64,000 nucleotides of DNA from an uncultured delta proteobacterium. GTDB taxonomy: Bacteria; Myxococcota_A; Polyangia; Polyangiales; Polyangiaceae. The stretch lies in contig CAVXQJ010000016.1 in the NCBI GenBank assembly GCA_963763745.1, positions 449,029 through 513,028 of the forward strand, given 5' to 3'. A program made the translations under genes and the position numbers. Below the pieces are notes generated by a model. The model had not been told where the DNA came from, made no database searches, and saw only the letters and a list, made by a program, of their open reading frames with translations. Of the stretch, positions 2,946-47,574 are shown one piece after another. Each line of letters starts with the position of its first letter. Position 1 is the stretch's first letter.

Positions 2946-4126
<1,181 letters not shown>

Positions 4127-4130
<4 letters not shown>

Positions 4131-5029: not shown

Positions 5030-5030
5030 A

Positions 5031-8298: not shown

Positions 8299-9123
8299 AT
8301 GGACGACCGCGAGCTGCGCACCAAGATCGAGGCCGCGTTTGCCGATCGCGAAAAGCTGAAGGACGAAACCTACGAGCGCGCCGTGGAAACGGCGATCGCG
8401 CGACTCGATCGCGGCGAGCTGCGCGTCGCGGAGCTCGAAGGCGACGCGTGGGTGACGCACGCGTGGGTCAAGCAAGCCATTCTTCTCTATTTCGCGATTC
8501 GAAAAATGGAGACGCTGACGGTCGGCCCGTTCGAGTTCCACGACAAGATCCCGCTGAAGAAAGATCTCGCGGAGGCCGGCGTGCGCGTCGTTCCGCCGGG
8601 CGTCGTGCGATACGGCGCGTTCGTCGAGCGCGGTGCGATCGTCATGCCCGGCTACGTGAACATCGGCGCGCGCGTCGGCGCGGGCACGATGGTCGACACG
8701 TGGGCCACCGTGGGATCGTGCGCGCAGATCGGTCGCGACGTGCACCTCTCGGGCGGCGTCGGAATCGGCGGCGTGCTCGAGCCGCCCGCAGCGTCGCCCG
8801 TCATCATCGAGGACGGTGCGTTCGTCGGATCGCGCGTCGGTCGTCGTCGATGGAGTGCGCGTCGGCGCGGAGGCCGGTCATCGGCGCGGGCGTCGTGCTC
8901 ACGGCGTCGACGGCGATCCTCGACGTGAGCGGACCGAGCGTCGTCGAGCATCGCGGCGTCGATCCCACCGCGCAGCGTCGTGATTCCCGGGACGCGCACG
9001 AAGAAATTCCCCGCGGGCGAGTTCGGCGTTCCGTGCGCGCTCATCATCGGTCAGCGCACGGCGTCGACCGATCGCAAAATGAGCTTGAACCAAGCGCTGC
9101 GCGATTTCTCGGTGCCTGTTTGA
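8299..9123 (+). CDS. dapD: 2,3,4,5-tetrahydropyridine-2,6-dicarboxylate N-succinyltransferase, disrupted by 2 frameshifts (~8835 and ~8990)
   Basis: MDDRELRTKIEAAFADREKL...hexapeptide repeats...IIEDGAFVGSR, then the frame jumps to ...VVDGVRVGAEAVIGAGVVLTASTAILDV..., then again to ...IPPRSVVIPGTRTKKFPAGEFGVPCALIIGQRTASTDRKMSLNQALRDF*. All three pieces are DapD-like. Confidence 0.75.
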
Positions 9124-10180
9124 TCGACGAGACGCTCCTCTGGCTCTGCTCCATCGCGTCGCCCATCGGCGAAGAAGGCGCGATCTGCGATGCGGTCGAA
9201 GCGCGCCTCGCGAAAATCGCGGCCCCGCGCCGCTACGGGAGCTCCCTGGTTGTCCCATGGATCCGCGAAGGTTCGGATCCGAACCTAAAGCGAAAACACA
9301 TCGTGCTCGCCGGCCACCTCGACACCGTGCGCACCGAGAACGGGCCCGCGCGCATCGAGGGCGACCGCTGCTTCGGCTCGGGATCGAGCGACATGAAGAG
9401 CGGCCTCGCGGTGATGATCGAGCTCGCCGAAAACCGAAGGTTGCAGAATGCAGATACGACGTGACGCTCGTCTTCTATGCGCGTGAAGAAGGGCCGTTCG
9501 TCGAGAACGAGCTCGCCGTCGTGCGTGGAGCGCGATCCCGACGCTGCGCCGCGTCGACTTCGCCGTGTGCCTCGAGCCGTCCGACAACAGGCTCCAGCTC
9601 GGTTGCATGGGATCGATCCACGCGACGGTCACCTTCGAAGGGCGCACGGCGCACAGCGCGAGACCGTGGGAAGGCGAGAACGCGTTGACGAAGGCCGCGC
9701 CGTTCATCGCGGAGATCGGCGCGCTCGCGCCCGAGGAGCACGTCATCGACGGCCTGACGTTTCGCAGCGTGATGACGATCACGCAGGCGCAGTGACGGCG
9801 GGCGCGGGCGCAACGTCGTGCCGGACCGATTCGTCCTCAACGTGAATCATCGTTTCGCGCCCGACGTGACGCTCGAAGCCGCGAAGCGGCGCATCGTGGA
9901 GATAGTCGACGGCCGCGGCGCCATCGAGTTCACGGACTTGAGCCCCGCCGCGATGCCGCACCGCAATCATCCGCTCGCGCAGCACCTCGTCGATTGCGGC
10001 GTCGCCGCGGTCGAACGCAAACAAGCATGGACCGACGTCGCGCGCTTCGCGCAAATCGGCGTGGCCGCCGTGAACTTCGGCCCCGGCGAGAACGCGCAAG
10101 CCCACCAGAAGAACGAATCGACTTCGCTCGCGCTCGTTCACGACGGCTACGAGATCTTTCGACGCTTCGTGACCTCTTAA
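9120..10180 (+). CDS. dapE: succinyl-diaminopimelate desuccinylase (M20 peptidase), disrupted by at least 3 frameshifts
   Basis: The pieces IDETLLWLCSIASPIGEEGAICDAVEARL...HIVLAGHLDTVRTENGPARIEGDRCFGSGSSDMKSGLAVMIELAE / YDVTLVFYAREEGPFVENELA / CLEPSDNRLQLGCMGSIHATVTFEGRTAHSARPWEGENAL / FVLNVNHRFAPDVTLEAAKRRIVEIVD...AVNFGPGENAQAHQKNESTSL lie in different frames, and all match DapE. Confidence 0.7.
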
Positions 10181-17755: not shown

Positions 17756-17772
17756 GACGAGTCGAGTCGACC

Positions 17773-17784: not shown

Positions 17785-17819
17785 CATTGAACATTGAATA
17801 TACATGGTAATATCGAGCC

Positions 17820-18956: not shown

Positions 18957-18989
18957 TTTCACGCAACCGGGCGCATCCGTCGTCGATGG

Positions 18990-21114: not shown

Positions 21115-21137
21115 CGGGGGGATGATAACGTCGTCGC

Positions 21138-21518
21138 ATGCGAGCGTGGGTCTTGTTGATCGTGCTGAGTGCGTGCCAAGCGAAGAGCGAGGCGCGCAAT
21201 CTCGTCGCGGCGGTCGACGCGTTTCGCGAGGCCAGCAACGACAACAAACCCGGCAAGGCCGACGCGCTCGACAAAGTCGAATGCACCGACAAAGAAGTCT
21301 GCGAGGTGAAGGCCGCGTGCACGAAATCCGCGGACGCGACGGCAAAGGGTCTACGCCTGCAACAAGACGTGCAGGCTCATGCGCACGACAGCGGACCTTA
21401 TCCGGACGATCTCGCGGACAAATGGAAAGAGGCGAGCTCCGATCTCGCGATGGGCTACGGCCTCCTCGAAGACTGTCGCAACAAGACGCTCGCGTTGAAG
21501 GAGCGGTTCGGCCTCTGA
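21138..21518 (+). CDS. hypothetical small lipoprotein
   Basis: [14 protein letters not shown] lipobox; helical, charged 126-aa product. Confidence 0.4.
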
Positions 21519-21545
21519 CAACTTTCGTGCTAATCCATCCGCCCC

Positions 21546-23168
21546 ATGTTCGACGCGCTCGCAAAAGGGTTCAAGCAAGCCAAAAATAGGCTCGCGGGCC
21601 TCACCGAGCTCACCGAGCAGAACGTCGAAACGGCGCTCCGCGAGGTGAGGCTCTCGCTCCTCGAAGCCGACGTCGAGCTCGGCGTGACGAAGGCATTCCT
21701 CGCGCGCGTGAAGGAGAAGGCGCTCGGCGAAGTCGTTCGCTTGAAGGCGAAGGGCAAAGACGGCGCGTCGATGAAGGTCACCGCCGCCGATCAGTTCGTG
21801 AAGATCTGCCACGACGAGCTCGTCGCGTTCATGAGCGCGGAGGGCGAAGCGATCACGTGGGTGAAGGGCGCGCCGACCGGCATCATGATGGTCGGTCTCC
21901 AAGGCTCCGGAAAAACCACGACGTGCGCGAAGCTCGCGCGCCTCCTCCAGAGCGAGAAGCACAAACCGATGCTCGTCGCCGCCGACATGCAACGGCCCGC
22001 GGCGGTCGAGCAGCTCCAAGTGCTCGGCGCGAGCTTGAACGTGCCGGTGTTCAACGTTCCGGGCGCGACGCCGCTCGAGATCTGCAAAGCGGCGCCTGCG
22101 GAAGCGAAGGCGAAGGGCTGCGACGTCATCGTGTACGACACCGCCGGCCGTCTCGCGATCGACGAAGCGCTGATGACCGAGCTCGCCGACATCAAAGCGG
22201 CCGTTCATCCCGAAAATATTTTCCTCGTCGTCGACTCGATGATCGGCCAAGACGCCGTCAAAGTTTCGAAGGGCTTCCACGATCGCCTCGCGATCACCGG
22301 CGTCGTCCTCACGAAGCTCGACGGCGACGCGCGCGGCGGCGCAGCGCTCAGCATCCGCGAGGTCACCGGCGCGCCCGTTCGGTTCATCGGCATGGGCGAA
22401 GGCACGGGCGCGCTCGAAGAGTTCCGCCCCGAAGGCATGGCGTCGCGCGTGCTCGGCATGGGCGACGTCGTCGGCCTGATGAAAGACTTCGAGCAAGTCG
22501 TCGATCAGAAAAAAGCCGCGGACGACGCGCTCCGCATGCTCGAGGGCAAATTCACGCTCGACGATTTCCTCGAGCAGATCCGCATGATCCAAAAAATGGG
22601 ATCGCTGCAGGACATCGTCGGAAAAATGCCGGGGATGGATCAGCTCCCCGAGGGCATGGCGCAGAACCTCGACGATCGCGAGCTCGTGAAGATCGAAGCG
22701 GTCATCTCGAGCTTCACGAAATTCGAGCGGCGCGATCCGAACGCGCTCATCCGCGAGCCTTCGCGCGTGAAGCGCATCGCGAAGGGATCGGGCTCGGAAG
22801 AGGGCGCCGTCAGCGAGCTCGTGCAGAAGTTCCTCTTCATGAAGCAGATGATGGAGGGCCTCGGGCAGAACATGGGCCTCCTCGGAAAAATTCCGGGGAT
22901 GAAAAATCTCGGCATGGCGAACGCGCTCCGCAAAATGCAAAAGGGCGGGGGAATGCCGGACTTGAGCGCGCTCGGCGGCATGGGTGGGCTCGGCGGGCTC
23001 GGTGGGATGGGCGGGCTCGGCGGCATGTTCGGCGGGATGCCGGGCCTCGGCGGCGGCGCGCCGGGCGAGAGCATGACGAAGATGAAAGTGCTCAGCGACA
23101 AAGAGCGCAACGCGAAGAAGGCCGCTCGCAAGCGCGAGAAAGAAGCGCGCCGCAAGAGTCGACGCTGA
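21546..23168 (+). CDS. ffh: signal recognition particle protein Ffh (SRP54)
   Basis: N and G domains ([20 protein letters not shown]); Met/Gly-rich M domain ([14 protein letters not shown]) and basic C-terminus. Intact. Confidence 0.95.
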
Positions 23169-24388
23169 TTTCTTCCATTCGCGATCGCAACATCTGGCTC
23201 GTCTACGCGAGCATCTTCCTCTTGGGCGTCGCGTATGGCGCATCGCTCTCGGTGACGCCGCTCCAGCTCGCGCACGTACACTTCTCGAAACGCGAGATCG
23301 GCACGCTCGCGATCTGCTTCGCGGGCGGCATCGTCGCGATGAGCATCCCGTCGGGCGCGCTGATTCGCCGATTCGGCGCGAAGGCGACGCTCATGGCCGC
23401 GCTCCTCGTCTATGCCACGTCCGTCGCGCTCTTCCCGCTGCAGACGACGTGGATCGGAACCGGTCTCGTTCGCTCGCTCGATGGCGCGGCGAGCGTCGGC
23501 GTGTGGGTCGCGTGCGAGACCGTCCTTCTCGCGCGCGCGGACAAAACACACAAGGCGCTCGTCATGAGCTTCTACGCGATGGCGATCGCGATCGGCTACA
23601 TCGCGGGATCCGGCTTCGCGCGCGTGCTGGCGATATTCGTAGAATACAAGTACACGTTCTTCACCTCTGCGCTGATTTCCGTCCTCACGGCGCTCTTCGT
23701 CTCGTCGCGGCTCGACCCGTCCGCGCAAGTCGCCGCGGAGGACCCAGGCGTCCCGTCGACGACCTCGAGCCTCGCTCTGCTCGTTCAGATCAAAACGTCG
23801 TGCGCCGCGACGTTCGCGTACGGGTACTTCCAAGCGGCGGTCGTCCTCTTCTTGCCGCTCTATTTGGTCGACTCGAAGAACGTCGCCGAGGAGAGCACCA
23901 TCCTCATCACCGCGTTCTTCGCGGCGGGCATGCTCATCTTCTCGAGCATCGCGGCGCGCATCGGCGACCGAGTCGGGCATTTGCGCGTGATGACGGTGCT
24001 CGCCGCGATCGGCGTCGTCATGATCATGGGCTTCGTGTTTCTCACGTCGTGGCCGCTCATGTGCGTCGCGATCTTCGTCGCGGGCGCGACGCTCGCGTCG
24101 ATTTCACCCGTGAGCTTGGCGCTCCAAGGCCACATCGCCGCGCCCGGCGACTACACCCGCGCGAACGCGATCTACAACGCGTGCTACGCGCTCGGCATGC
24201 TCCTCGGCCCGCCCATCTCGGGCGTCATCATCACGAAGTGGGGCGGGGCGGCGATGCTGCATCACTTCGCGGCTATGTGGGTCGGGTTCATCGTCATGAG
24301 CCTCGTGTTTCGGCGGGACGATCCTCACGCGATGTCCGAAAAGATGCGCGCAAGCGGCACGGCGCGAACGCGATCGCCGAGCGCGTAG
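23168..24388 (+). CDS. MFS transporter (start codon uncertain; no canonical start found just after the ffh stop)
   Basis: 12 predicted TM segments (IWLVYASIFLLGVAYGASLSV ... ). It sits in the +2 frame relative to ffh and runs from the ffh stop to 24388. It may be translationally coupled or have a non-canonical start. Confidence 0.6.
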   Translation: MSSIRDRNIWLVYASIFLLGVAYGASLSVTPLQLAHVHFSKREIGTLAICFAGGIVAMSIPSGALIRRFGAKATLMAALLVYATSVALFPLQTTWIGTGLVRSLDGAASVGVWVACETVLLARADKTHKALVMSFYAMAIAIGYIAGSGFARVLAIFVEYKYTFFTSALISVLTALFVSSRLDPSAQVAAEDPGVPSTTSSLALLVQIKTSCAATFAYGYFQAAVVLFLPLYLVDSKNVAEESTILITAFFAAGMLIFSSIAARIGDRVGHLRVMTVLAAIGVVMIMGFVFLTSWPLMCVAIFVAGATLASISPVSLALQGHIAAPGDYTRANAIYNACYALGMLLGPPISGVIITKWGGAAMLHHFAAMWVGFIVMSLVFRRDDPHAMSEKMRASGTARTRSPSA

Positions 24389-25548
24389 GTCTCGGTGCCT
24401 TCGTAGATCACGTCGAGACGATCGAGGCGCAGATCGGCGAGCGCGATGCGTATCGACGGCGTCATGCGCGGCGTGCTCGTTCGCTTCACTTCGAATCCGA
24501 TGCGCTTGGTTCCGTGGAGCACGAGAAGGTCAAGCTCGGCGCCTTGATGCGTCGACCAGAAGAAACATTTTTCGCGCCGCACGCCGAGGCGCGCGACGAT
24601 CTGATCGATCGCGAATCCTTCCCATGATGCGCCGACCTTCGGGTGACGCTCGAGCGCGCTCTGCGATGCGATCCCGAGCAGCGAATGGAGGATGCCGGAG
24701 TCGCCGAGATAAATCTTCGGCGAGCGCACCTGCCGCTTCTTCAAGTTCTCGTGCCACGGCTGGAGTTGCCGCACCATGAACGTGCCCGTGAGCGCGTCGA
24801 GGTACGAGCGCACGGTGCTCTCCGAGATGGCGAACGCGCGCGCGAGCTCCGCGCCGTTCCAGATTTGCGCGTGGTAGTGCGCGAGCATCGACCAGAATCG
24901 GAAGAGCGCTTGCGACGGGATGCGCAAACCGAGCGGCGCGAGATCGCGCTCGAGAAACGTTCGCACGAACTCGTCGCGCCAGCGCACGCTGTCGTTCTCC
25001 GTCCGCGCGAGAAACGAACGCGGAAAGCCGCCGCGTCGCCACAGCGCCCCGGTCTTCTTTTCGCCGACTTCGTCCGCGGTGAGCGGCGGCAGCTCGTGGT
25101 ACGCGATGCGACCCGCGAGCGACTCCGAGCCTTGTCGCGCGAGATCGCCGGCCGCGCTGCCGAGCACCAGAAATCGCGCGGGCACGCCGGGCCGATCGAC
25201 GAGGACGCGCAGCACGGGAAAGAGCTCGGGCGCGCGCTGAATCTCGTCGAGCACGACGAGGCCGCGAAGCGGCTCGAGTGCGAGGAGCGGATCGCGCAGG
25301 CGCTCGAGATCGCGCGGAGACTCCAAGTCGAACCGCGTGTGGCGCTTTCGCTCCGACGCGACGTGCGCCGCGAAAGTCGTCTTCCCGCTTTGCCTCGGAC
25401 CGACGATCGCAACGACCGGCGTCGTGCGGAGGAGGCCGTGGACGACGCGGACGTGTCTTGCGCGGGTGATCAAAGCGGCTCTCCATGAAAAGGCGCGCTG
25501 TGACCCACGAAATTCATGCTCCGAGCTTACCATGAAAAACATGGCCAA
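24325..25548 (-). CDS. AAA+ ATPase, COG1373/DUF4143 family (paralog 2; true start probably ATG at 25542 or 25533)
   Basis: VVAIVGPRQSGKTTFA Walker A; LVVLDEIQ Walker B; ...WEGFAIDQIVARL... colinear with paralog 1 over the whole length. Confidence 0.8.
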   Translation of the reverse strand: MAMFFMVSSEHEFRGSQRAFSWRAALITRARHVRVVHGLLRTTPVVAIVGPRQSGKTTFAAHVASERKRHTRFDLESPRDLERLRDPLLALEPLRGLVVLDEIQRAPELFPVLRVLVDRPGVPARFLVLGSAAGDLARQGSESLAGRIAYHELPPLTADEVGEKKTGALWRRGGFPRSFLARTENDSVRWRDEFVRTFLERDLAPLGLRIPSQALFRFWSMLAHYHAQIWNGAELARAFAISESTVRSYLDALTGTFMVRQLQPWHENLKKRQVRSPKIYLGDSGILHSLLGIASQSALERHPKVGASWEGFAIDQIVARLGVRREKCFFWSTHQGAELDLLVLHGTKRIGFEVKRTSTPRMTPSIRIALADLRLDRLDVIYEGTETYALGDRVRAVPLARIFSDIA

Positions 25549-25614
25549 CGCGGTGGATTTTCATGGTGCTTGGCGTCTCACCCAAACCCGCGAACTTCTG
25601 GTAAACCGCTCGGC

Positions 25615-27105
25615 ATGCTGAAAGCGCGAGCACTGGTTTGTGCGGCGATCGCCGCGTGTGCGATCGGATGCGTCGGTGGGTCGAAGGGCATCTCGAGCGA
25701 GGACAAGGAGAAGCTCAAGGCGTACATCGCCGACAGCGAGCCGGCCGACATCCCGCACAAGATCGACATCAACTTCGAAAACAAAGTGCACATGATCGGC
25801 TACAAGGTCGAGCCCGAGGTCGCCAAGCCGAACACGGACATCAAGATCACGTACTACTGGCGCTGCGACGACACGCTCGACGACGGTTGGGCGCTCTTCA
25901 CGCACGTCACCGACGAGTCGCAAGGCAAGAGCGACAACCTCGACTGGGCCGGCCCGCTCCGCGAGAACCGCGACAACAAGCAGCTGCTCGGCCCGTCTCG
26001 TTGGGAGCGCGGAAAATATTATCTCGACGAGCAGCCGTACAAAGTTCCGGACTGGGTCAAGGGCTCGGAGCTCACGTTCTACGTAGGCATCTGGAAGGGC
26101 AGCGCGCGCCTCCACGTCGTCTCGGGTCCGAACGACGGCGAGAACCGCGCGATCGCGGCGAAGGTGAAGACCGGAATCAACGCGCCGCCGCCACAAGAGA
26201 TCCACTCGGCGCTCCCCGACGCGATGCTCGGCAACAAGCTCGCGGCGAACGACAAGATCACCATCGACGGAAAAGCCGACGAACCCGCTTGGAAGGGAGC
26301 GCAGATCCTCGGCCCTTTCGTTGATGTGGGAACGGGCGCTGCCGCAGCGGCCACGTTCCCAGCGAACGGAAAGGTGCGTCTCTTGTGGGACGACACCAAT
26401 CTCTACGTGTTCGCAGAAATCACGGAGACGGATGTCGTCGGCGGATTCGACGACAAAACGAAGAAGGTCCCCGCGAAGGACGACAAAGCGGACAGCATCT
26501 GGACCACGGGCGGTCAGCCGAAGCTTTGGACGAAAGACGCGCTCGAGATGATGATCGACCCGGGCGCGAGCGGCGACAACAAGAACTACTTCGAGCTGCA
26601 GTTCAACCCGCAGAACAAAGTCTTTCACGCGCACTTCGACGACTTTCGCAATCCGTCGACGGAGCCGAACGGCCCATTCGGCCACGAGGATTGGGATCCG
26701 AAGTTGAAGAGCGCCGCCCTAGTGCACGGCACGGTCGACAAGGCCGATGATCAGGATCAAGGCTACGACGTCGAGATCGCGATCCCGTGGACGGCGTTCG
26801 CGAAGAACGCGACGAAAGCGCCGCCCGCGCCGGGCGACGTTTGGCGCATGAACTTCTACGCGATGAAGGCGAACAACGCGGTCGCGTGGTCCGCGCCGAT
26901 GGGGCAGGGGTTTCATCGCGCGGCGCGCTTTGGCCGCGTCCACTTCGGCCCGGCGATGCCCGCGGCGCTTCCGTTCGCGTCGGGGTCGGTCGGTCCCGCG
27001 AGCCCGATGGCCCCGCCGCCGCCGGGCATGCCGCGCATTCCGCGCATGCGCATTCCGGGCGTGCCGGGCCCCGTTCAGACCGCGACGACGAATACGAACC
27101 CGTAA
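25615..27105 (+). CDS. lipoprotein with carbohydrate-binding (CBM9/DOMON-like) domain and Pro-rich C-terminal tail
   Basis: MLKARALVCAAIAACAIGC lipobox (M34 of the ORF). ...KITIDGKADEPAWKGAQ...LWDDTNLYVFAEITETDV...NYFELQFNP...VWRMNFYAM pattern typical of CBM9-like domains. C-terminal PPPPGMPRIPRMRIPGVPGP. Confidence 0.55.
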   Translation: MLKARALVCAAIAACAIGCVGGSKGISSEDKEKLKAYIADSEPADIPHKIDINFENKVHMIGYKVEPEVAKPNTDIKITYYWRCDDTLDDGWALFTHVTDESQGKSDNLDWAGPLRENRDNKQLLGPSRWERGKYYLDEQPYKVPDWVKGSELTFYVGIWKGSARLHVVSGPNDGENRAIAAKVKTGINAPPPQEIHSALPDAMLGNKLAANDKITIDGKADEPAWKGAQILGPFVDVGTGAAAAATFPANGKVRLLWDDTNLYVFAEITETDVVGGFDDKTKKVPAKDDKADSIWTTGGQPKLWTKDALEMMIDPGASGDNKNYFELQFNPQNKVFHAHFDDFRNPSTEPNGPFGHEDWDPKLKSAALVHGTVDKADDQDQGYDVEIAIPWTAFAKNATKAPPAPGDVWRMNFYAMKANNAVAWSAPMGQGFHRAARFGRVHFGPAMPAALPFASGSVGPASPMAPPPPGMPRIPRMRIPGVPGPVQTATTNTNP

Positions 27106-27143
27106 ATTCGTCATCTGCGAAGGGCGTCCGATACGATGATGCC

Positions 27144-28205
27144 ATGCGTGTTTCGCTCGGCGTCGTGTTCTCGGGCGCGCTCTGTCTGATTGCGCAGAGC
27201 GCAACGGCGCAGATCACGTTCAGCCTCGACAAATCCCGTAGCGCCGCGGCGGATGGCGCACGCGCGAAAGCCGTCGCCGGCGATTGCAAAGGCGCGCTCG
27301 ATTTGTTCGACGAAGCGCTTCGACACTCGATCGATCCGACGCTCTACCGCGATCGCGGCGCGTGTCACGAGAAGCTCGGCAACGTGTATCCCGCGATCGA
27401 CGACTATCGCGCATACGTCTCGCAAGCGCCCACCGCGGGCGACGCGGACAAAATCCGCGAGCGCATCGAATCGCTCATCAAGACGGCGTCGCAAGACATG
27501 GCGCCGAGCCTCGGTCATGGCGGCGACTTCGAGTCCGAGATGCGCGGCGGCATGGTGGACGGCTCGACACCCGGCTCGACGACGAGCAGCACGACCAAAA
27601 AAGACGACGACTCGAAAGACACGCAGACCAAACCGGAAGACCCGAACAAGCCGCTGAAGACGGTCGAGTACGAAGAGGGCCGCGACAAACAAGCGGAGAG
27701 CGGCCCGCTGCGGAAGGGCAAAGGTCTCGTGCTCGGCGTCTTCTTGTGGCCGCGCTACGTCATCAACGACTACTCGTTCCAGTTCGGACAAGGCATCGCC
27801 GTGCGCGTCGGTTACTCGGTGAGCTCGTCGAGCACGCTCGCGATCGAGATCGGCTACATGAACCAGCTATCGACAGGCAGCGCATCGACCACCGACGGCT
27901 TCACGGGCACGTTCAACTACGAGTACCGCATCCCGCTCGATCGATGGGCCGACAACCAGCTCATCGTCGGCGCGGGCGCCGGCTTCGAAGACCTCAAGCG
28001 CAACGATCTCCAGCTCCAATACGCGAGCTTCGTGGGCCGCGGCCGCTTCGGTTACCGCCACGTCTTCGGCCCGTCGCTCGCGCTGGATGTCGCTGCGGAC
28101 GGCGGGCTCATGATCACGCTCCCAATTGACCCGCCGCCGGGCGTGGAGACGGCCAGCTTTGGGGGGTTCATTGGGGGGGTTGTGGCACTGAGTGTGGGGT
28201 TTTAG
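27144..28205 (+). CDS. secreted protein with N-terminal TPR-like region and C-terminal outer-membrane beta-barrel-like domain (ends ...ALSVGF)
   Basis: Signal peptide MRVSLGVVFSGALCLIAQSATAQ. Alternating-hydrophobic beta-strand pattern in the last ~200 aa and a terminal Phe typical of BAM substrates. Adjacent to, and convergent with, the Wzc-like gene. Confidence 0.5.
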   Translation: MRVSLGVVFSGALCLIAQSATAQITFSLDKSRSAAADGARAKAVAGDCKGALDLFDEALRHSIDPTLYRDRGACHEKLGNVYPAIDDYRAYVSQAPTAGDADKIRERIESLIKTASQDMAPSLGHGGDFESEMRGGMVDGSTPGSTTSSTTKKDDDSKDTQTKPEDPNKPLKTVEYEEGRDKQAESGPLRKGKGLVLGVFLWPRYVINDYSFQFGQGIAVRVGYSVSSSSTLAIEIGYMNQLSTGSASTTDGFTGTFNYEYRIPLDRWADNQLIVGAGAGFEDLKRNDLQLQYASFVGRGRFGYRHVFGPSLALDVAADGGLMITLPIDPPPGVETASFGGFIGGVVALSVGF

Positions 28206-28306: not shown

Positions 28307-30588
28307 TCAGTTGGGCGGTGAAGCGCTCTCGCTCGGCTCGCCGTCATCATCGACGCCATGGGGTCGATACCCTTCGCTCCGATAGTAGTAATACTGTTGT
28401 AGTAGTAGCTATAGCTGCTCTTGCGTGAGGTCGACCGCGTTGAGCACCGCGCCGACGACGCGCGCGTCGACGTCGCGGAGAGCGCGCAGGCCTTGGCGCG
28501 CGAGGTGGTGGCTCGTCTTGAACGCGCGGACGACGAAGAGCGTAGTGTCGGCGAGCGTCGAGACGATCGCCGAGTCGGTCACGGCCGCGAGCGGCGGGCT
28601 GTCGATGACCACGCGATCGAAGTGCTCGAGCAGCTCGCGCAGGAACTTCTTGAAGCGCTCCGATTGGAGCAAGTCGGCGGGATTTGGCGGCGGCGGGCCT
28701 GCGGGGATGCGACACAGATTCGGAATCGCGTCGCCATCTGGTCCCGTCGAGCGCGGCTTCGCGACATCGCCGATTGATGCGTCGCCGACGAGGACCGCCG
28801 TGACGCCGGCGTCGCCCGAGCGCCCGAAGATGCGGTGAAGCCGCGGGCGTCGAAGATCGCAGTCGATGATGCACGCGCGTTGTCCCGCTCTGCGCCATCG
28901 CGATCGCGACGCTGCATGCGACCGTCGTCTTGCCCTTCCGAGGGCGCCGAGCTCGTCACGAGGAGCGTGCGGTGCGGCTGTCCGGGTTCATGAAATGGAG
29001 GTTCGTGCGGAAGCTGCGTGCAGCCTCGGCGACGCCGCTGAGCGGACGGTCGTGGACGTAGAGTGCCGGATCGCCGCTTGCGGCAGCGGCGCTCGACGTC
29101 GGCGCTTCTCCTTTTCTTGCCGCCGTACCGCCGTACGCAGGCGCGTCCTCGTCGAGCGAGGGAAGCATGCCGAGGAACGTGAGGTTGAGCCGCGTCTCGA
29201 CGTCCTCGGGCGTCTTCATCGAGCTGTCGATCTGCTCGCGCAAGACGGCCAAGCGCGATGCCGAGCGACGAGTCCGACGAGCGAGCCGATGCCGAGGTTG
29301 ATCAGCGTGTTCGGGCGGATCGGGCGCGCGCGGCTCGGTCGGCTCGTCGACGACGTCGACGTTGTTGACCTTCATGCGCCGCGCGAGGTCGGCTTCTTTC
29401 TGGCGCTCGAGGAGCGTGTTGTACATCTTCTCGTTCTGTACGCGTTGACGATCGAGGCGGTGGTACTCGAGCTCTTTCAGGTTGAGATCGACCGCGCGCT
29501 TGCTGCGCTTCTTCGTAGAGCGAGCTGTCGCCGGCTCTCTTGGTGCTTGATGACTGCGAGATCATGCTCGACGGCGCCCTGGATGTTGCGCACTTCGTCG
29601 ACGAGCGCGCGCTTCGCCTGCGTGATGCGCTCGTCGGCGGCCTTCACGAGCGGGTGGTTCTCGCCCTTGCCGCTCGCGAGAAGCTCCTGACGGTCCTTCG
29701 TTGGCGGCGAGATATTGCGTTCGAAGCGACTGGAGGAAACCGCTCGTGAGGAGCTCGGACGCCGGAAGCACGTCGACGTTGTCGATCGTCACCTTCGCGA
29801 GCTCGGCCTCGCGCGCCTCGAGCTCTTTGCGCTTCGTCCGCGTGTGCGTCAGCGCGTCGTCGTACGTCTGCATCTCGAGACGAATCATCTTGCTGACTTC
29901 TTCGACGGTGCTCGACGGGAGCTCGTTCTTCTCTTTGAACTCGTGGAGCGCGTTCTCGCTCGCCTCGAGCTCGGTGTTGTAGTGGTCGACTTGGCCGCCG
30001 AGCCAGAGCGCTGCGTCGGAGCTCTCGTCGACGCCCTTCTCGAGGTTGTGGTCGACGTACGCGTGCGCGACGGCGTGCGGAGCTGGGCGGCGAGCGCCGG
30101 GTCGGTGTCTTCGACGCGAACGTAGAAGAGGCGGCTGTTCTTGACCGGCTCGACCGTGATCTCCGCGCGCAGCGCGCGACCGCGTTTTCGTTCGCGAGCT
30201 TGGCCCGGCGCGACGCCACCGTTGAAGCGCGGATTGGCCTGAAGCCCCATGCTCGCGCACGACCTTCGTGAGCACCGTGTCGCTCGTCACGATCGTGAAC
30301 TGCGTCTGGTACATCTCCTGGCTGTCCAGGTAGAACATCCAGCCCGTCGTCGGGTCTTGCTGGTTGCCGATGGGGCGAACGGGGTTCGGATCGAACTCCA
30401 GCATCGACGACGCTTGGTAGATGCGCGGTCGCGATTTCGACCAAAGCAGCGCAACGCCGCTCACGAACAGCACCATCGCGACGACCATAGGCCCAATGCT
30501 TGCGGACTTGGCCAAGAAGCGCCTGAATGCTGAGGCCGCGACCGTCGTCTTTCGACCTTTGGGCGGTGGTCTCGGGTGGGCTTGCCAT
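28307..30588 (-). pseudogene. Wzc-like polysaccharide co-polymerase / BY-family tyrosine autokinase, broken by at least 8 frameshifts plus an in-frame TAG before the Tyr-rich tail
   Basis: All expected pieces are present but lie in different frames. They are: N-terminal TM plus Wzz domain (IGPMVVAMVLFVSGVALLW..IYQASSMLEFDP; LQANPRFNGG...VEPVKNSRLFYVRV), a second TM (NTLINLGIGSLVGLV), Walker A (LLVTSSAPSEG / KTTVACSVAIAMAQSG), IIDCDLRRPRLHRIFG, the Walker B region VVIDSPPLAAVTDSAIV, and a Tyr cluster (QQYYYYRSEGY) encoded after TAG 28409-11. Confidence 0.8.
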
Positions 30589-30731
30589 GGGCGATGAAGG
30601 ATGACGTCACTACCTCAAGATGAGGCGGCGTGCCAGTTCGATGCGTGGGACCTGCGGCGGATTCAAGCGTGAAAATACGAAAAATCTCGATGGTTTTCCA
30701 GCATGTGACGAGGGTAAAACGCGCGGATTCC

Positions 30732-32628
30732 GTGTGTGGCATTGCTGGCGTCTTTGGTCTGAGTCGCGTGAGCCTGACGCGACGGATTTCGCGCGGGCGA
30801 TGTGCTTGCGCATCCGTCATCGCGGTCCAGATGGGCAGGGGACCACGTTCGCTGCACGACGTTGCGCTCGGAATGGTCCGCCTCGCGATCGTCGACGTCG
30901 AGCACGGCAAGCAACCGATGCTCAACGATGACGGAGCAGTCGCGCTCGTCTTCAACGGCGAGATTTACAATGCGCCGGCGTTACGACGTGAGCTCCAGGA
31001 TGCGGGCGTTCGATTTCACACGCGAAGCGACACGGAAGTCATTTTGCGTCTCTACGAGCGTGATCCGCACGACGTCGAAGCGGCATCTCGCGGGCATGTG
31101 GGCGTTCTGCGTTCACGATCGACGTCGGCGCAGACTCGTCTTGAGTCGAGATCGCTTCGGCATCAAACCGCTTTACTTCGTCGACCGCGGAGCGCGCACT
31201 CGCGTTCGGATCGGAGCTTGGTGCTTTCGAGCCGCTTCGCACGACTACCAAGTTCGCGCCGGCGTTCGCGATCGATCACGGGGCCGCTCACGCGATGCTC
31301 GCGTGGTCGTACATCCCCAACGAAGACACGATCTTCGAAGGCGTCAAGCGTCGTCGCTCCGAGCACGCGCCTCGAAGTCGATCTCGAGACGGGCAGCGCA
31401 GACGACGACGACGTCACTACGTCGTTCGACCGTCCGACGAAGCCTCGCGCGTGAGAGCCTTCCACGACGCGTGCGCGCTGATCGAGCCGCTCCTGCGCCG
31501 ATCGGTACGCGAGCACCTCGAGAGCGACGTGCCCATCGCCGCTTTCTTGAGTGGAGGAATCGATTCTTCGCTGATTCTCGCGCTGGCTGCCGAAGAGTCG
31601 CACGCAAACCGATTCGTGCATTCTGCATTGGTTTCCGCGAGCCGCGTTTCGACGAGTCGCCATTCGCGCGCCGCGTCGCGGAAAAACTCGGCGTGGATCT
31701 GCACGTTGAAGTCTTCGACGAAGCATCCGCTGCAGCGTCTCTTGACGATGCGCTCGCCGCATACGACGAGCCGTTCGGTGATTCGTCGAGCCTCGCAACG
31801 TTCATGCTGTCGCGCGTCGTCGCGACGAACGCACAAGGTCGCGCTCGGCGGCGACGGTGGCGACGAGGTGTTCGCCGGGTACCACAAACATCAAATCGTT
31901 CGCATTCGTCAGGCGCTCGGGCGCGTCGCCCAAGCTGCGCGATGGTATGCGCGGGTCGTTGCTCGCGCACTGCCTGCTCGCACGGATCGCTCGAGCGCGT
32001 CTCGCCGAGGCGATGCGAGTCGTTCGACGCGTCGCGCGCGGGCTCGCAAGGGCGACGACTGCTGCTTACTGCGCGCTCACCCAGGTCGCGTCGCTCGACA
32101 AGGTCGCTCCGCTCGTCGTGAGCCCGGCGGCCCCGGCCCGATTCGTGGAGCCCATCCTTCGCACGTTTGCCGAAGCAGGAGGGAGCCGAGCTGCAACGAA
32201 CGCTCGTATGCGATCTCGCGAACGTGCTCCCGAACGACATGCTCACGAAAGTCGATCGCGCGAGCATGGCGTGCGGGCTCGAGGCTCGCGTGCCGATGCT
32301 CGATCATCGCGTCGTCGAAGCCGGGCTTGGATTGCCTGCGAAGTTCACCATCGCCGGTTCCGGTAAGCGTGTGTTGCGCGAGCTGTATCGGCGCCGCTTC
32401 GGAGAGGAGCTCGCGAATCGGAAAAAAACCGGATTCAGCGTGCCGGTCGAAGCTTGGATGCGCGGACCGCTCGCATCGAAGTGTGCGGATATGATGCACG
32501 GGCACTCGGACTTGTTGCATATGTCTCGCGAGCTATGGAGCGAGTGGCTTGCGCGAGATCCACAAGCGTTATGGCACGCGTTTGCGCTCCGCTCTTGGGA
32601 AGTGGCGCGCGCTGATGGAGTGCGCTGA
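30732..32628 (+). pseudogene. asparagine synthetase (glutamine-hydrolysing) family amidotransferase paralog 1, heavily frameshifted (at least 8 shifts)
   Basis: The pieces MCGIAGVFGL (GTG start, Cys2 nucleophile), REPDATDFARAMCLRIRHRGPDGQG, LAIVDVEHGKQPMLNDDGAVALVFNGEIYN, LAGMWAFCVHDRRRRRLVLSRDRFGIKPLYF, AAFLSGGIDSS, VALGGDGGDEVFAGY and the C-terminal ...MACGLEARVPMLDHRVVE... are scattered over three frames. Confidence 0.75.
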
Positions 32629-35133
32629 ATGGACGCGACGACGAGACGCGTCTGGGGAACATGGATATTCGCGCTAGCGGTCATTGGGGCTCCGCTCGCG
32701 ATTGGTGCGCTCGACCGAAGAGTGATGTGCGTCATGGCTCTTGTTATCGTCGTCGGTACAGCGCTCGTCCTCACCGCGTCGGAGCCTTATGGGCCCCGTC
32801 GGAGCGCGTCGATGCTCGTCGCGCTGATGGCGAGCCTGCTAGGATTCACGGCGCTACAAACGATTCCGATTCCTGCGGGCGTCGCTAGTCGGTTGAGCCC
32901 ACATGCCGCCGACATTTGGGCACGGTGCCTGCGGCCGCTTGGGGAAGCCGGACCTCGATGGCATCCATTGACCGTCGACCCACCTGCGACGCACCTCGAG
33001 GTTCTTCGATGGGCGACGTACCTCGTCGCGCTGCTCGGCGCACTCGCTATAGCGCGGACTCGCGAAGGAGCGAGGTTCTTGGTGCGCGTGCTCGTCGTCG
33101 GCGGAGTGTTGATCGCCGTTGCTTCCGTGATGCACGCCGCTCTCGGGCTCGACAAGGTCTACGGAGTCATCCGTCCGAAAACGCAAGTTGGGTGGATCGC
33201 GCCGCTCCTCAACAGCAATCACGCTGGAGGCTACGTCAACATTGCGTTGATGCTCATGGCGTCTGCCGTCATCTCGAAGGCGCCCGTCATACCGCGTATG
33301 CTCGCCATCGTCGGGTCGGTGGCCCTCGTTGCGTTCGAGCTGTGGAACGCGTCGCGCGGCGCGGCGGGGACGATGGTGCTCGGCCTGCTCGCGCTCGTAA
33401 TCCTGCATCGTCGCCACGGGCGCGTCGCGCCCGCGCACGGCGCCGTTCTTCCCGCGCTGTTGATACTCGGCGGCGTCGGAATGCTGGTGCTTGGCGCGTT
33501 CGAGAGCTCCGCGCGGGGTATCGCGGACACGAGCCTGACGAAGTTGAAGATCGTCGGCCGAGCCATCACGACGATGGTTCCCGCATATCCGTTTTTCGGT
33601 GTGGGACGTGGCGCGTTCGAATCATCATTTCCGGAGTTCATGAACGCGCGAAACGAGGGGTTCGTAGTCTTCACGCACCCGGAGAACCTCGTGGCGCAGT
33701 GGTTGTGCGAGTGGGGAGTCGTCGTGACGCTCGTCGCCGTGGGCGTGCTCGCAGTCGCGCTGCGTTCGCGAAACGCGCTCGCGCGTGGCGCAATTGCGAT
33801 TGGCGCTTGGGTGGCGCTCGTCGTCGTCGCGCTTCAGAACCTCGTGGATTTCAGCTCCGAGACTCCGGGCGTGATGCTCGCGCTCGTTGTGTGTGCGGCG
33901 ATCGTGACGTCCGGGAGTGGGCATCGCAGAAACGCTGATCGAGCGGACTCCTTCGCAACGCACCCGAATGCGGTCGCGGTGGTCTCCGCGATGGCGGTCG
34001 GACTCGCGTGTGCGTGGGTGTGCATCGAACGTGCGGAGGTTCTCGTCGACGCAAAACCGCACGTGCGCGACGCACTCTTCGACGCACGGTCGTCGCGCGA
34101 GGAGCGCACGATGCTCGAACGCAACTCGATGCTCGCTCATCCCGCTGAGCCGTACTTCCCGTTGCTTGGTGCGTTGCGCGCCGTCGCAGACAAGCAAGAC
34201 GTCCTTCCTTGGATCGAGCGCACGCTTGAGCGCGCGCCTATCTATGCGCCGGCGCATCTCGTGTTTGCGCGGTGGCTGCGTTCCCGATCTCCGTCGCACG
34301 CGCGGGTCGAATATCGCATCGCGACCGAAGAACTCATGGGTCCGCCAGCAAGTGAACTCTTGCCGCTCGTGGGATCGTTCGACGATGCACTCGAGGCGGT
34401 GCCCATCGACGCGACCGCTGCCGATACGCTAGACGGGTTAGCGAGTCTGCTCGAAAAAACTCACCCAGCAACGCGCGCTCTGATCGACGCAGAAATCGAG
34501 CGCCGCACACCGGGGCGATTGTCGGTCACCGCCCGCGCCGCGAACGACGCCTATGACGACGCGGTCGCACCCGATGTTTCGCCGTGGTGCAACGGCGACA
34601 GTTGTGCCCGGGATGCGCTTGCCCGCGCGGCGGACCTGGAACGTCGTGCGCCGCAATCGAGTATTGGATACGCCCTGACAATGAAACTGCTCGCGCTGCG
34701 CGGTGACGTCCGTGGCGCTCTAGCGCACATGCACGACGCATGCACCTTGCTCCGCGATCGGAGCGCGTGTTTGGTCGAAGTCGCGACGCTCGCAACCACT
34801 TCAGGCAGTGCCGAAGCTACGGAGGACATCGATGCGCTTGCGCGTGAAGGCTGCCCATGGAGCGAAAGCTGCGCGCAGAATCTCTTGTCGGCAGTGGCGC
34901 TTGAGCAACAACGGCACAACAAAAATCGAGCGCTCGTGTTTCTTCGGCGCGCCGCGGCGATCGACCCCGATCGCGCCGATTTGCAGGAGAGCGTTGCAGT
35001 ACAAGCGGCCGCCGCTGGCCTCCATGGAGAAGCGGCTACCGCGTACGAACGATTATCCCACCTGCATCCGACAGACCCGCGGTATTCAAAGCTTGCAGAA
35101 GGTGAACGTTTGCTCTCGCGCAGCAGCAACTAG
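32629..35133 (+). CDS. O-antigen ligase/Wzy-like polymerase family membrane protein with long C-terminal TPR-like soluble domain
   Basis: ~10-12 TM helices with the FTHPENLVAQWLCEWGVVV motif typical of the O-antigen ligase (Wzy_C) family. ~350-aa C-terminal helical repeat region. Intact, 834 aa. Confidence 0.7.
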   Translation: MDATTRRVWGTWIFALAVIGAPLAIGALDRRVMCVMALVIVVGTALVLTASEPYGPRRSASMLVALMASLLGFTALQTIPIPAGVASRLSPHAADIWARCLRPLGEAGPRWHPLTVDPPATHLEVLRWATYLVALLGALAIARTREGARFLVRVLVVGGVLIAVASVMHAALGLDKVYGVIRPKTQVGWIAPLLNSNHAGGYVNIALMLMASAVISKAPVIPRMLAIVGSVALVAFELWNASRGAAGTMVLGLLALVILHRRHGRVAPAHGAVLPALLILGGVGMLVLGAFESSARGIADTSLTKLKIVGRAITTMVPAYPFFGVGRGAFESSFPEFMNARNEGFVVFTHPENLVAQWLCEWGVVVTLVAVGVLAVALRSRNALARGAIAIGAWVALVVVALQNLVDFSSETPGVMLALVVCAAIVTSGSGHRRNADRADSFATHPNAVAVVSAMAVGLACAWVCIERAEVLVDAKPHVRDALFDARSSREERTMLERNSMLAHPAEPYFPLLGALRAVADKQDVLPWIERTLERAPIYAPAHLVFARWLRSRSPSHARVEYRIATEELMGPPASELLPLVGSFDDALEAVPIDATAADTLDGLASLLEKTHPATRALIDAEIERRTPGRLSVTARAANDAYDDAVAPDVSPWCNGDSCARDALARAADLERRAPQSSIGYALTMKLLALRGDVRGALAHMHDACTLLRDRSACLVEVATLATTSGSAEATEDIDALAREGCPWSESCAQNLLSAVALEQQRHNKNRALVFLRRAAAIDPDRADLQESVAVQAAAAGLHGEAATAYERLSHLHPTDPRYSKLAEGERLLSRSSN

Positions 35134-37420: not shown

Positions 37421-38960
37421 ATGAGGGCATACATCGCCACGTTTGCGCTCGCGCTGGTCGTGTCGGCTGCGCTGACTCCTCTTGTTCGGCTGGTTGCGTT
37501 GCGTCTCGGTGCGACGTCGACGCCAGGCGGCCGAAACGTACACGTGACGCCAACGCCACGCCTCGGCGGTGTCGCGATTGTCATTGGCTTCCTTGCCCCG
37601 CTTGCCGCGCTGTTGTGTGTGAACTCTTCGGTCGCCACCTCCATTCGCAACGAAGCGCTACGCCCAATAGGGCTCCTCATTGGATCGCTAGCGATGTGTG
37701 TCGTTGGTGTGATCGACGACACCCGTCGCCTTCGAGCGAGTCACAAGCTTCTCGTTCAGGTGCTGACTGCAGCGCTTGCGTTTGGATGTGGGTTTCGGAT
37801 CGACTCCATCGCTCTCCCTTATTTCGGCACCCTGTCGATGGGAATTTTCGCTTTCGCCGTCACAGTTATTTGGATCGTCGGGATCGTCAATGCTGTCAAC
37901 CTGATCGACGGCTTGGACGGCCTCGCGGGCGGTGTCGTCCTGTTCGCCAGTTTGACGAACTTCGCAATCGCCGTAATCGAGGGCAACATTTTCATTGCGG
38001 CAATTACGGCATCGATTGTCGGCGCGGTTCTCGGGTTTCTATTTTTTCAATTTCAACCCAGCTCGCATTTTCATGGGCGACTCTGGAAGCTACTTTCTTG
38101 GTTATGCCGTGGCGACCGTCGCACTAGGTGGCCCGACGAGGTCGCAGAAGGCATCGACTGCTGTCGCGCTGCTCGTACCCTGTTTGGCGCTGGGAGTGCC
38201 CATCTTCGACACGCTCTTCTCGATGGTCCGTCGGTTCCTCGAGCGGCGCTCCATGTTTTCGCCCGATCGAGGCCACCTGCATCATCGGCTCATCGATATG
38301 GGTCTCACACATCGGCGCGCTGTGCTCACGCTTTACGGCGTGAGCGTCGTGCTATGTGTGTCAGCGATTGCGGTTACGTTCGGGCGCGGGTGGCAAGTAG
38401 GCCTTGCGGTGATTGTTGCCTCGTCCGTTCTGATGGCGCTCGTGCGCTTCGCCGGTTATTTCGAATATCTTCGAGTTCACCTGCGCCGCCGCGGGCGGAT
38501 GCGCAGTGGAGAGGCACAAGCGCTGCGTCGAGTCGTTCCCAACGCCATCGTGCAGCTGGCCGCGTGCAAGTCAGAGGCAGATGTTTGGAACAACGTTGAC
38601 GCGTTGACGGTGAAGCTGGAAAATCTTCACGCTGTCGTTAGAATTACGCGATTGTCGGACGGGAAGAGCATCTACCATTCCCCCACGCCGAGCAACGAGT
38701 CGAAGGACCTCGTAGTGATCAATACACCACTCGGCGACGAAGCAACGGCCGTCTCGCAAATCGTCGTCGCACTCGACATAGACAATGGTCTCGACATCGA
38801 AGTGGAGTTACTCGTGCAGTTGTTGGTAGATGCCATCGACGATGCGCTCGCGCACGTGAAGAGTCCGTCGGCTCGCTCATCTTCCCGTGTGACGGGCACG
38901 ACTCATGTTTGTGAGGCGATTGCGCCGACAGATCAGGTCGAGCCAAGCAGCTCGGCGTAG
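37421..38960 (+). CDS. WecA/WbpL-like undecaprenyl-phosphate N-acetylhexosamine-1-phosphate transferase (GT4 / MraY family) with ~170-aa C-terminal extension; one frameshift in a T6 run near 38046
   Basis: VIDDTRRL, IVNAVNLIDGLDGLAGG motifs. After ...GAVLGFLFF the frame shifts at ctattttttcaatttc to give ...NPARIFMGDSGSYFLGY...HLHHRLID... (second frame, ORF 37995..38960). Confidence 0.8.
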
Positions 38961-45718: not shown

Positions 45719-47574
45719 ATGTGCGGAGTTTGTGGTTTCACTGGCGTACGCAATCACGAATCGCTGGTTCGGATGGCGACTGCCATCGCGCACCGTGGAC
45801 CCGACGACGCCGGCTACTGGGAGAGCGACGACGTCTCGCTGGGGATGCGTAGACTCGCCATCATCGACGTCGAGAGTGGCCAGCAACCGGTATTCAACGA
45901 AGATGGTTCAGTCTGCGTCGTGTTCAACGGCGAAGTATACAACCACGCCGAGCTCCGCGCCGACCTTGAATCAAAGGGGCATGCCTTTCGCAGCCATCAC
46001 TCCGACACGGAGGTGCTCGTTCACCTGTACGAAGAATACGGCGAGGAGTTCCTTCATCGGTTAAACGGGATGTTCGCGATCGCGATGTGGGACAACCGGC
46101 ACAAGCGTCTTATTCTCGCGCGCGACCGCGCGGGGATCAAGCCACTCTACTTCACGCAGAGCGGCGGCCGCGTTATTTTGCGTCTGAGATTAAGTCGCTG
46201 CTCGCGCATCCAGACATCAAGAGAGAGCCGTGCTTCACTGCGCTCTACCACTACTTCAGTTTCAAGCACGTGCCGGCGCCGTGGAGCGCATTCGCGGGCA
46301 TCGAACAGCTTCGCCCGGGCGAGAGGGTCATCTTCGAGCGAGGCGTGCTCCGTCGCGAGACTTGGTGGGCACTCAAGTTTCGAGAAGACGGCAAGCTTGA
46401 TGAGAGCGAGGCGGCGACGCGCATTCGCGCTCTCCTCGAAGACGCGGTTCGGATTCGCATGCGTTCGGACGTTCCGTTCGGCGCATACCTCTCGGGCGGC
46501 GTGGACAGCTCGACCATAGTGGCGCTCATGTCGCGCATTGGCGGACGGCGAGTGACAACGTTCTCGCTCGTCTACTCGGACGAGTTCAAACACAAGGCCG
46601 CCGACCAAGAATACGCGCGGCAGATGTCATCGCTTTATGGCACCGATCACCACGAGTACGTGCTCACGCAACGCGACGTTGTCGACAGCATCGGTGCTGT
46701 CGTTGCGTCCTTTGACGAGCCGTTTTCGGGAGTGACTTCCACGTATTTCATCACGCGGCTCATCTCGAAGCACGTCAAAGTCGCACTCTCCGGCGACGGA
46801 GCGGACGAGCTCTTCGGGAGCTACCTTGCGCACAGGCTGGCGCAACCCATTCATCATCTCGAAGTCATGCGCGATCGCTTGACGACACTCACGCCGGAAG
46901 AAAAGAACCTACTCCGGCCGTATCACGACAGACCGGAGTACCTAACAGCGATACTCGAACGCGGCGACGATGCGGCGCGTCGCGCGAGCCTCTACCTGTG
47001 GACCGACGCCGAGAAGGCTGAGCTACTGAGCACCGAAATGCTCGCGCGCGTGCCGCGCGCGAGCACGGAGGGTTTGATACGCGAAGTCTATGCGGCGTCG
47101 GGGACAAACGATCCGTTGAACCGTGCTCTCTACTGCGATTTCGTGACCCTCCTACCGGATCAAGTGCTCGCGTTCGTCGATCGGTTGTCTATGGCGCACT
47201 CGGTTGAAGTGAGGCCGCCGTTCCTCGATTATCGCATTATCGAGCTCGCTGGCACGATCCGCGGATCTATCAAAATCAAGGGCGGAAGAGAAAAGCACGT
47301 ACTAAAGGAAGCCGTCAAAGGACTGATTCCCGACGCGGTGATCAACCGTCCGAAAGAGGGTTTCGTTCTCCCGATCGACGAGTGGCTCGTCTCCGACATG
47401 CGGCCGTTCGTCGAAGAACTCCTCACGCCGTCGCGTCTCATGCGCCACGGCCTCGTGCGGCCTGAGCCCGTGCGAAGAATCTTGGACGAGCACTACGCGC
47501 GAAAGAAAAATCACGGCGCGCGAATCTGGAATCTGATGATGTTCCAGAGCTGGTGCGAGCGCTATGTCACATGA
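45719..47574 (+). CDS. asparagine synthetase family amidotransferase paralog 2 (one frameshift in a T-run at ~46175)
   Basis: MCGVCGFTG (Cys2), RRLAIIDVESGQQPVFNEDGSVCVVFNGEVYN, then a shift at gttattttgcg to ...FASEIKSLLAHP...AYLSGGVDSS...ALSGDGADELFGSY...VEVRPPFLD... Confidence 0.8.

Follow-up and report, generated by a model that had tools for sequence, protein, structure and literature searches.

The broken reading frames of two neighbouring genes, a Wzc-like tyrosine kinase and an AsnB-family amidotransferase, very probably reflect errors of sequencing or assembly in this part of the deposited consensus, and not gene decay or any biological feature. Judged by their sequences, both are almost certainly ordinary, functional genes. 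The first is predicted to encode a chain-length regulator and tyrosine autokinase and the second an amidotransferase, both belonging to a polysaccharide locus of the Wzx/Wzy type in a Polyangiaceae-like myxobacterium. We prefer consensus errors because the damage consists of indels only, with no in-frame stop, untouched conserved residues and NCBIfam cut-offs passed; because AsnB is intact in an independent assembly whose flanking proteins are identical; because a second patch of this kind affects dapD and dapE, which are housekeeping genes; because the affected stretch has sharp boundaries, clean flanks and a strong clustering of events; and because orthologous loci are intact, while a contig of a sister MAG has breaks of the same kind.

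Number, extent and clustering of the frame breaks

The window, i.e., the whole stretch of 64,000 nt analysed, contains the gene for a Wzc-like polysaccharide co-polymerase / bacterial tyrosine (BY) autokinase at 28307..30588 on the minus strand. AsnB paralogue 1, encoding a glutamine-hydrolysing asparagine-synthase-family amidotransferase, is found at about 30705..32628 on the plus strand. According to frameshift-aware protein-to-DNA alignment, the Wzc-like gene is broken by 16 to 19 single-base indels. Sixteen of these (12 extra and four missing bases) were recovered with seven of seven references, and up to three further events fall into a Lys/Arg-rich linker (29076-29129). For AsnB, the number depends on the frameshift penalty: strict settings gave 10 events and laxer ones 14, and about 17 are required to match the length of the intact copy in the independent assembly described below, so that 10 to 17 breaks are given overall. 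The earlier note had counted at least 16 breaks in both genes; they exist and are more numerous.

The affected stretch, patch A (28394..32187), reaches from the 3' end of Wzc across the intergenic region into AsnB, most of which it covers. Its single-base indels number at least 26 and probably about 35, with insertions and deletions at a ratio of roughly 4:1. In a GC3 frame plot, the frame flips repeatedly across the Wzc-AsnB region. The frameshift-aware comparison detected no event in the flanks, neither in 15184-28202 nor in 32631-35130. The TPR-like gene on the left (27144..28205, plus strand) is intact with no event against its orthologue on contig L001, and so is the gene of the 834-aa Wzy_C-domain protein on the right (32629..35133, plus strand). 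The patch boundaries are sharp, and the breaks end exactly at the starts of the neighbouring genes. For 26 events within 3.8 kb, the Poisson probability of such clustering is P = 6e-20. The strong clustering claimed before therefore stands, but the damage is not confined to this locus, since seven events are found in dapD-dapE and single ones at ~38040 and ~46175.

The indels are not linked to homopolymers (mean longest run 2.34, compared to 2.38 in controls). Insertion bias and lack of a homopolymer link differ from what usually remains as error in nanopore data after polishing. The patch coordinates are compatible with fixed polishing windows of 500 nt, in a comparison which has no statistical power. 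Two further candidates were rejected. The many frame switches which an HMM segmentation placed in 1-12 kb of the window are mostly true gene boundaries. Repeats or cross-mapping between paralogues were discarded as a cause, because the patch matches other AsnB copies in the window with only 68-80% over 50-145 nt, which is too weak for mis-polishing.

Conservation after frame correction

After frame correction, Wzc is 84% identical to the intact 764-aa protein P0001 and free of in-frame stops. All catalytic motifs are found, dispersed over three frames as the earlier note had described: Walker A (SAPSEGKTT), Walker A' (IIDCDLRRP), Walker B (VVIDSPP), the RK cluster and the Tyr cluster. The corrected protein scores 155.4 bits against TIGR01007 (cut-off 108) and is thus assigned to the BY-kinases of the Wzc type. 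The segment 28381..28420 does code on the minus strand for the C-terminal tyrosine cluster, as had been proposed; it reads SSYSYYYN-YYYY, spread across two frames, and the tail of its relatives reads ...DLTKSSYSYYYNQYYYYRREGY. The TAG at 28409..28411 (minus strand), formerly held to cut off this cluster, is present but does not truncate the protein. It is in frame only downstream of a +1 event at ~28423, and a -1 event at ~28394-28400 restores the frame beyond it. Bracketed by this +1/-1 pair, it is an out-of-frame stop and no nonsense mutation, and the tail aligns with all relatives once both events are corrected.

The corrected AsnB carries the motifs (V/M)CGIAG, with the catalytic Cys codon at 30735-37, and SGGIDSS. 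It reaches 419 bits against TIGR01536 (cut-off 267), which qualifies it as asparagine synthase (glutamine-hydrolysing). For TIGR03108, the amidotransferase of the XrtA/PEP-CTERM system, its 452 bits are below the cut-off of 816.9.

To check for stops, the corrected Wzc and AsnB were aligned against 13 reference proteins, and no in-frame stop was detected in either. Columns with ≥95% conservation were regarded as conserved. The number of violated columns is 0 of 198 in Wzc and 4 of 211 in AsnB, and intact homologues violate 0-7 under identical scoring. Both corrected proteins are 81-84% identical to their closest intact relatives and do not form a long branch.

These values bear on the possibility that both genes are genuine pseudogenes, i.e., that loss of selection has led to ongoing decay of one amidotransferase and of the chain-length regulator. 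Natural decay of accessory glycan loci does occur, and here the reading frames of two genes lying side by side in an accessory polysaccharide locus, which has two further AsnB paralogues, are disrupted by at least 26 breaks. True pseudogenes, however, gain substitutions, nonsense codons and larger deletions alongside indels. In a simulation of neutral decay with 5-10 substitutions per indel, 3-6 stops and 30-54 hits to conserved columns are expected, and a substitution-to-indel ratio ≥2 is excluded. Neither nonsense codons nor an excess of substitutions at conserved sites, as expected for relaxed constraint, were found in Wzc or AsnB. Together with the evidence from other genes given below, decay is largely refuted and a very unlikely origin of the breaks.

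The preserved protein sequence could also be taken to indicate expression despite the breaks, via programmed ribosomal frameshifting or transcriptional slippage, for which nothing beyond this preservation speaks. At least 30 sites would each need such recoding, and events of both signs, +1 and -1, would have to be accommodated. Break sites are not enriched in homopolymers or slippery runs, and the orthologues lack such sites and are read in a single frame; a slippery or homopolymeric motif conserved in orthologues was not found. The probability of recoding is hence regarded as negligible.

Independent assembly, relatives and other damaged genes

Consensus errors should be absent from independent sequences, and a Logan contig of 9,024 bp from run ERR11594405 allowed a comparison. 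It encodes a Wzy identical to the 834-aa protein and an identical 585-aa neighbour at identical spacing. Directly abutting Wzy, it has an intact AsnB of 636 aa, characterised by its length and Pfam content. It also contains an intact Glycos_transf_4 protein of 512 aa, the gene of which is exactly 1 nt shorter than in the window. Thus, the lesions of AsnB and of the glycosyltransferase are not reproduced in this independent sequence of the lineage. The contig ends 92 codons into Wzc, and the comparison covers Wzc up to this point. Between the divergent genes Wzc and AsnB, the intergenic region (30589..30704) measures 116 nt in the window and 114 nt in the Logan contig, as derived from the gene table and the start codons; being 2 nt longer, it is apparently affected by indels as well.

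Exact-protein look-ups gave no record of the TPR-like, CBM9, RadA, 492-aa, 609-aa and AlaS proteins. As AlaS, RadA and further proteins of the window have no exact copy in Logan, the run may hold a close relative instead of the same strain. A homology search did not return the 636-aa AsnB. Most likely, the searchable set represents the proteins of the run incompletely, as it lacks the exact Wzy, too. A scan of JGI metagenomes with an exact 38-mer gave no matches, and nothing on ERR11594405 was found in literature and supplements.

A comparison with orthologous loci, which the earlier note had suggested, showed both genes intact and in conserved arrangement on L001, L002 and the contigs of P0001 and P0008. 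Contig L010 of the sister MAG has the same kind of +1 breaks in sucC and sucD, which suggests a shared technical cause.

The damage is also found elsewhere in the window. Patch B (8839..9793, plus strand) comprises seven indels (six insertions, one deletion) in dapD and dapE, and its indel density and insertion bias equal those of patch A. Both dapD (8299-9120, plus strand) and dapE (about 9110-10179, plus strand) are affected, and the Pfam matches M20 and M20_dimer are split over three frames. In frameshift-aware alignment, dapD and dapE are 86% and 83% identical to their L010 orthologues. In both patches, the apparently spurious single-base indels are spaced at about one per 110-145 bases, with insertions predominating, and the adjoining sequence to both sides is clean. 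A WecA-like Glycos_transf_4 gene (37421..38960, plus strand) has one extra base at ~38040, which splits the Pfam domain between two frames. AsnB paralogue 2 (45719..47574, plus strand) has one frame break at ~46175, leaving the GATase and Asn_synthase domains in different frames. Accordingly, the breaks are indifferent to gene function, as they strike the essential dapD and dapE, a glycosyltransferase, a second AsnB and apparently non-coding DNA.

Decay of the two genes is contradicted by the same damage pattern in dapD/dapE, by the intact AsnB beside an identical Wzy in the independent assembly, and by breaks which halt exactly at the starts of neighbouring genes and apparently strike the intergenic region, too. 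Of the two explanations offered originally, decay or a poor assembly patch, the former is unsupported and a low-quality patch is strongly supported by the exclusive occurrence of indels, the untouched conserved residues, the intact Logan AsnB and the second patch in dapD/dapE.

Alternatively, the indels could be real and stem from a very recent, strain-specific burst of localised indel mutagenesis, for instance by error-prone repair synthesis over a few kb. Such a burst would have produced discrete kb-sized tracts with ~1% insertions and essentially no substitutions, striking Wzc-AsnB and dapD-dapE at once. The discrete patches (1 kb and 3.8 kb), their uniform density and their consistent insertion bias would suit this explanation, as would the possibility that the Logan run represents a sister strain, several exact proteins being absent there. 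A burst would, however, inactivate dapD and dapE, and the same pattern in sucC/sucD of the sister MAG contig points to a technical cause. We know of no bacterial process which gives ~1% single-base insertions without substitutions over kilobases. Such a burst is considered very improbable; if true, it would represent localised indel hypermutation of a kind not described in bacteria.

Proposed origin of the breaks and comparison with known systems

Gene-fragmenting indel errors in long-read and hybrid assemblies are covered in PMC12007338 (Kastor) and PMC11017572 ('Many purported pseudogenes in bacterial genomes are bona fide genes'), and nanopore-only MAG workflows include polishing aimed specifically at indel reduction (PMC12313526). 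The 607-kb metagenome-derived contig is probably a long-read or hybrid assembly. Polishing or consensus formation probably failed in stretches of ~3.8 kb (28394-32187) and ~1 kb (8839-9793), which would have left them at near-raw-read quality. This failure may go back to a locally low coverage, to reads that failed to map or to a mixture of strains.

The value of these results is mainly practical, and no new biology follows from the Wzc-AsnB frame breaks. Automatic annotation would either label Wzc, AsnB, dapD, dapE, the WecA-like transferase and the second AsnB pseudogenes or break them up into about 20 short ORFs. Such an annotation would understate the capacity for exopolysaccharide chain-length regulation and lysine synthesis. 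Error patches can be told from decay by sequence alone, using the exclusive occurrence of indels, the lack of stops, untouched conserved columns and sharp boundaries, and this test is applicable to other MAG windows.

Like Wzc and other PCP-2a BY autokinases (TIGR01007; Pfam Wzz, GNVR, AAA_31), the corrected kinase has a transmembrane co-polymerase part of the Wzz/GNVR type at its N-terminus, the three Walker motifs A, A' and B, an RK cluster and Tyr residues clustered at the C-terminus. Nothing biological sets it apart from this family. Against NF008568, the equivalog of E. coli Wzc, it scores 185 bits (cut-off 1068), as expected for a distant lineage. The corrected AsnB resembles AsnB-family amidotransferases of exopolysaccharide loci in its N-terminal Cys nucleophile, its GATase_6/7 and Asn_synthase domains and the PP-loop SGGIDSS, and its gene lies between those of Wzc and Wzy, in agreement with the orthologous loci. 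In contrast to the XrtA-associated amidotransferase, it remains below the TIGR03108 cut-off and is hence not filed as that equivalog. With true pseudogenes, such as those of Mycobacterium leprae and host-restricted Salmonella, Wzc and AsnB share interrupted reading frames, but they differ from them in having single-base indels only and a conserved protein background. The breaks resemble known indel errors of long-read and hybrid assemblies, in which single-base indels cut conserved genes, essential ones included, into several ORFs; here, the orthologues and an independent assembly are intact. Compared to such known errors, those in the window are biased towards insertions, have no tie to homopolymers and are concentrated in two patches with sharp boundaries, not scattered over the contig.

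Frame breaks in the Wzc and AsnB genes

A Wzc-like polysaccharide co-polymerase and tyrosine autokinase (28307-30588, minus strand) and an AsnB-family amidotransferase (from about 30705 or 30732 to 32628, plus strand) are encoded as a divergently transcribed pair. AsnB directly abuts an intact Wzy_C-domain gene of 834 aa (32629-35133, plus strand). Six-frame translation and a GC3 frame plot revealed frame jumping in both Wzc and AsnB.

Frame breaks were counted using a purpose-written protein-to-DNA aligner, which permits one-base insertions and deletions, guided by intact homologues. Seven Wzc references of 750-768 aa were taken from the homologues P0001-P0008. Sixteen events (12 extra bases, 4 missing) were common to all seven, and up to three further events lie in a Lys/Arg-rich linker. 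For AsnB, six references gave 10 events with a strict frameshift penalty and 14 with a laxer one, 12 of the latter being insertions. No in-frame stop codon was present in any reference alignment of either gene. The "at least 16" breaks of the earlier note were correct yet low, because the counts for both genes together give a robust minimum of 26 events, all within 28394-32187, and the true total is likely about 35.

The TAG at 28409-11, described before as cutting off the tyrosine-rich tail of Wzc, is present, but it enters the reading frame solely through a +1 event near 28423; the frame after it is restored by a -1 event near 28394-28400. With both events corrected, the tail becomes DLTKSSYSYYYN.YYYYRSEGY, in alignment with all relatives. 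The repeat at 28381-28420 is indeed the coding sequence of the tyrosine cluster, as had been proposed.

The flanks were searched with the same aligner, using orthologues from the syntenic 250-kb contig L001. No event was found in twelve kilobases of the left flank (alaS, ffh, the CBM9 gene and the TPR-like gene) or in Wzy on the right, which bears out the statement that the long neighbours alaS and the Wzy-like gene are intact. Under a Poisson model, 26 of about 35 events would fall inside 3.8 of 64 kb with a probability of 6e-20. The damage is thus strongly clustered as claimed, but the patch is not unique, with dapD, dapE and single breaks elsewhere also affected.

Constraint on the corrected proteins and an independent assembly

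Columns conserved to ≥ 95% were scored in the frame-corrected proteins, the Wzc set being derived from 58 homologues. None of 198 columns was violated in Wzc and 4 of 211 in AsnB; intact homologues had 0-7 violations under the same scoring, which therefore gave no sign of relaxed constraint in the two corrected proteins. Both share 81-84% identity with their nearest intact relatives, without a long branch, and pass the NCBIfam cut-offs for TIGR01007 (tyrosine autokinase) and TIGR01536 (asparagine synthase), respectively. Neutral decay was simulated with 5-10 substitutions per indel, taken as the usual range in bacteria. Between 3 and 6 stop codons and 30-54 conserved-column hits would be expected, whereas 0 and 4 were observed. 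None of 2,000 replicates matched the observed values at ratios of 5 and 10; at a ratio of 2, about 7% matched, even under a looser criterion of ≤ 12 conserved-column hits.

A Logan contig of 9,024 bp, assembled independently from run ERR11594405, encodes the 834-aa Wzy and a neighbouring 585-aa protein exactly as in the window, with identical intergenic spacing. It carries an intact AsnB of 636 aa, which ends one base before Wzy. By arithmetic from the gene lengths, this protein would fit the window given a GTG start at 30705 and a net 13 extra bases there, in agreement with the alignment-based count. This assembly supports intact genes. Of the two explanations in the earlier note, genuine pseudogenisation of Wzc and AsnB is rejected on the conservation tests and the independent intact copy, and a local assembly-error patch is supported.

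Further broken genes and the nature of the errors

A second patch (8839-9793) contains seven events, six insertions and one deletion, and splits dapD (8299-9120) and dapE (about 9110-10179) over three frames. It matches the Wzc-AsnB patch in insertion bias and in density, with an event about every 136 nt. The corrected proteins are 86% (dapD) and 83% (dapE) identical to their orthologues in the related contig L010, and ndk, radA, trx and other neighbours are clean. Selective loss of these lysine biosynthesis genes in a free-living myxobacterium is not plausible. The WecA-like Glycos_transf_4 gene (37421-38960) has one extra base near 38040; the Logan contig contains an intact 512-aa copy, exactly one base shorter. 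In AsnB paralogue 2 (45719-47574), the GATase and Asn_synthase domains are in different frames, thus a single frame break, near 46175, is likely. L010, which belongs to another assembly (ENA ERZ25039489 contig_200502), has +1 breaks in sucC (three) and sucD (two) at about 4079-6150, where its gene calls are fragmented; both genes are intact in the window. Noise of this type is therefore present in related MAG contigs too.

About four insertions were found per deletion. No homopolymer association was detected, the mean longest run in the 15-nt context being 2.34 versus 2.38 at random positions. Programmed frameshifting is excluded: the sites are too many, +1 and -1 events are mixed, and slippery contexts are absent at the events. 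A genuine local burst of indel mutagenesis is very improbable, since housekeeping genes would need to be struck too, and we know of no mechanism for it. The frame breaks in Wzc and AsnB are, with high confidence, an assembly artefact and not a real biological feature, as four independent lines favour error over decay: unrelaxed constraint, the Logan copy, the dapD-dapE patch and the breaks in L010. Discrete, sharply bounded patches with roughly 1% indel error in a metagenome contig as long as this one, 607,100 bp, suggest that consensus polishing did not succeed or was omitted there; local coverage may have been too low, reads may have failed to map, or strains may have been mixed. Long-read errors that fragment genes are recognised as a problem (PMC12007338, PMC11017572), and nanopore-only MAG workflows use a polishing round specifically against indels (PMC12313526).

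A DDE_Tnp_1 transposase domain is encoded by an ORF at 12185-13009, which lies in a stretch of 58% GC, between a thioredoxin-like gene ending at 12138 and a HEAT-repeat gene starting at 13188. The two are adjacent in L010, so this ORF looks like an IS insertion.

The glycan locus and its relatives

The window has a high GC content of about 64% up to 35 kb. The Wzc-AsnB module opens a large glycan locus, in which (about 35000-64000) GC falls from about 64-65% to about 59%. The locus encodes CapD-like and WecA-like proteins, methyltransferases, a radical-SAM/B12 protein, GT1, GT2 and GT4 transferases, a DegT aminotransferase, a dehydratase, WbqC and a C-methyltransferase. Three AsnB paralogues lie in the window, at 30.7, 45.7 and 57.0 kb. 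On the minus strand, the Methyltransf_11 Pfam match of 54842-55747 is limited to profile positions 49-95, and 55770-57011 has a GT4-like N-terminal domain without a C-terminal Pfam match to Glycos_transf_1; these partial matches might reflect divergence or further frame breaks.

The nearest relatives of the window are Polyangiaceae and Labilithrix-type Myxococcota MAGs. Comparison with orthologous loci, proposed before as a check, showed the module conserved in relatives: the TPR-like gene, Wzc, AsnB, Wzy_C, the CapD-like gene and the WecA-like transferase are kept. Once frame-corrected, the Wzc-AsnB region is a standard module with nothing unusual in its biology.
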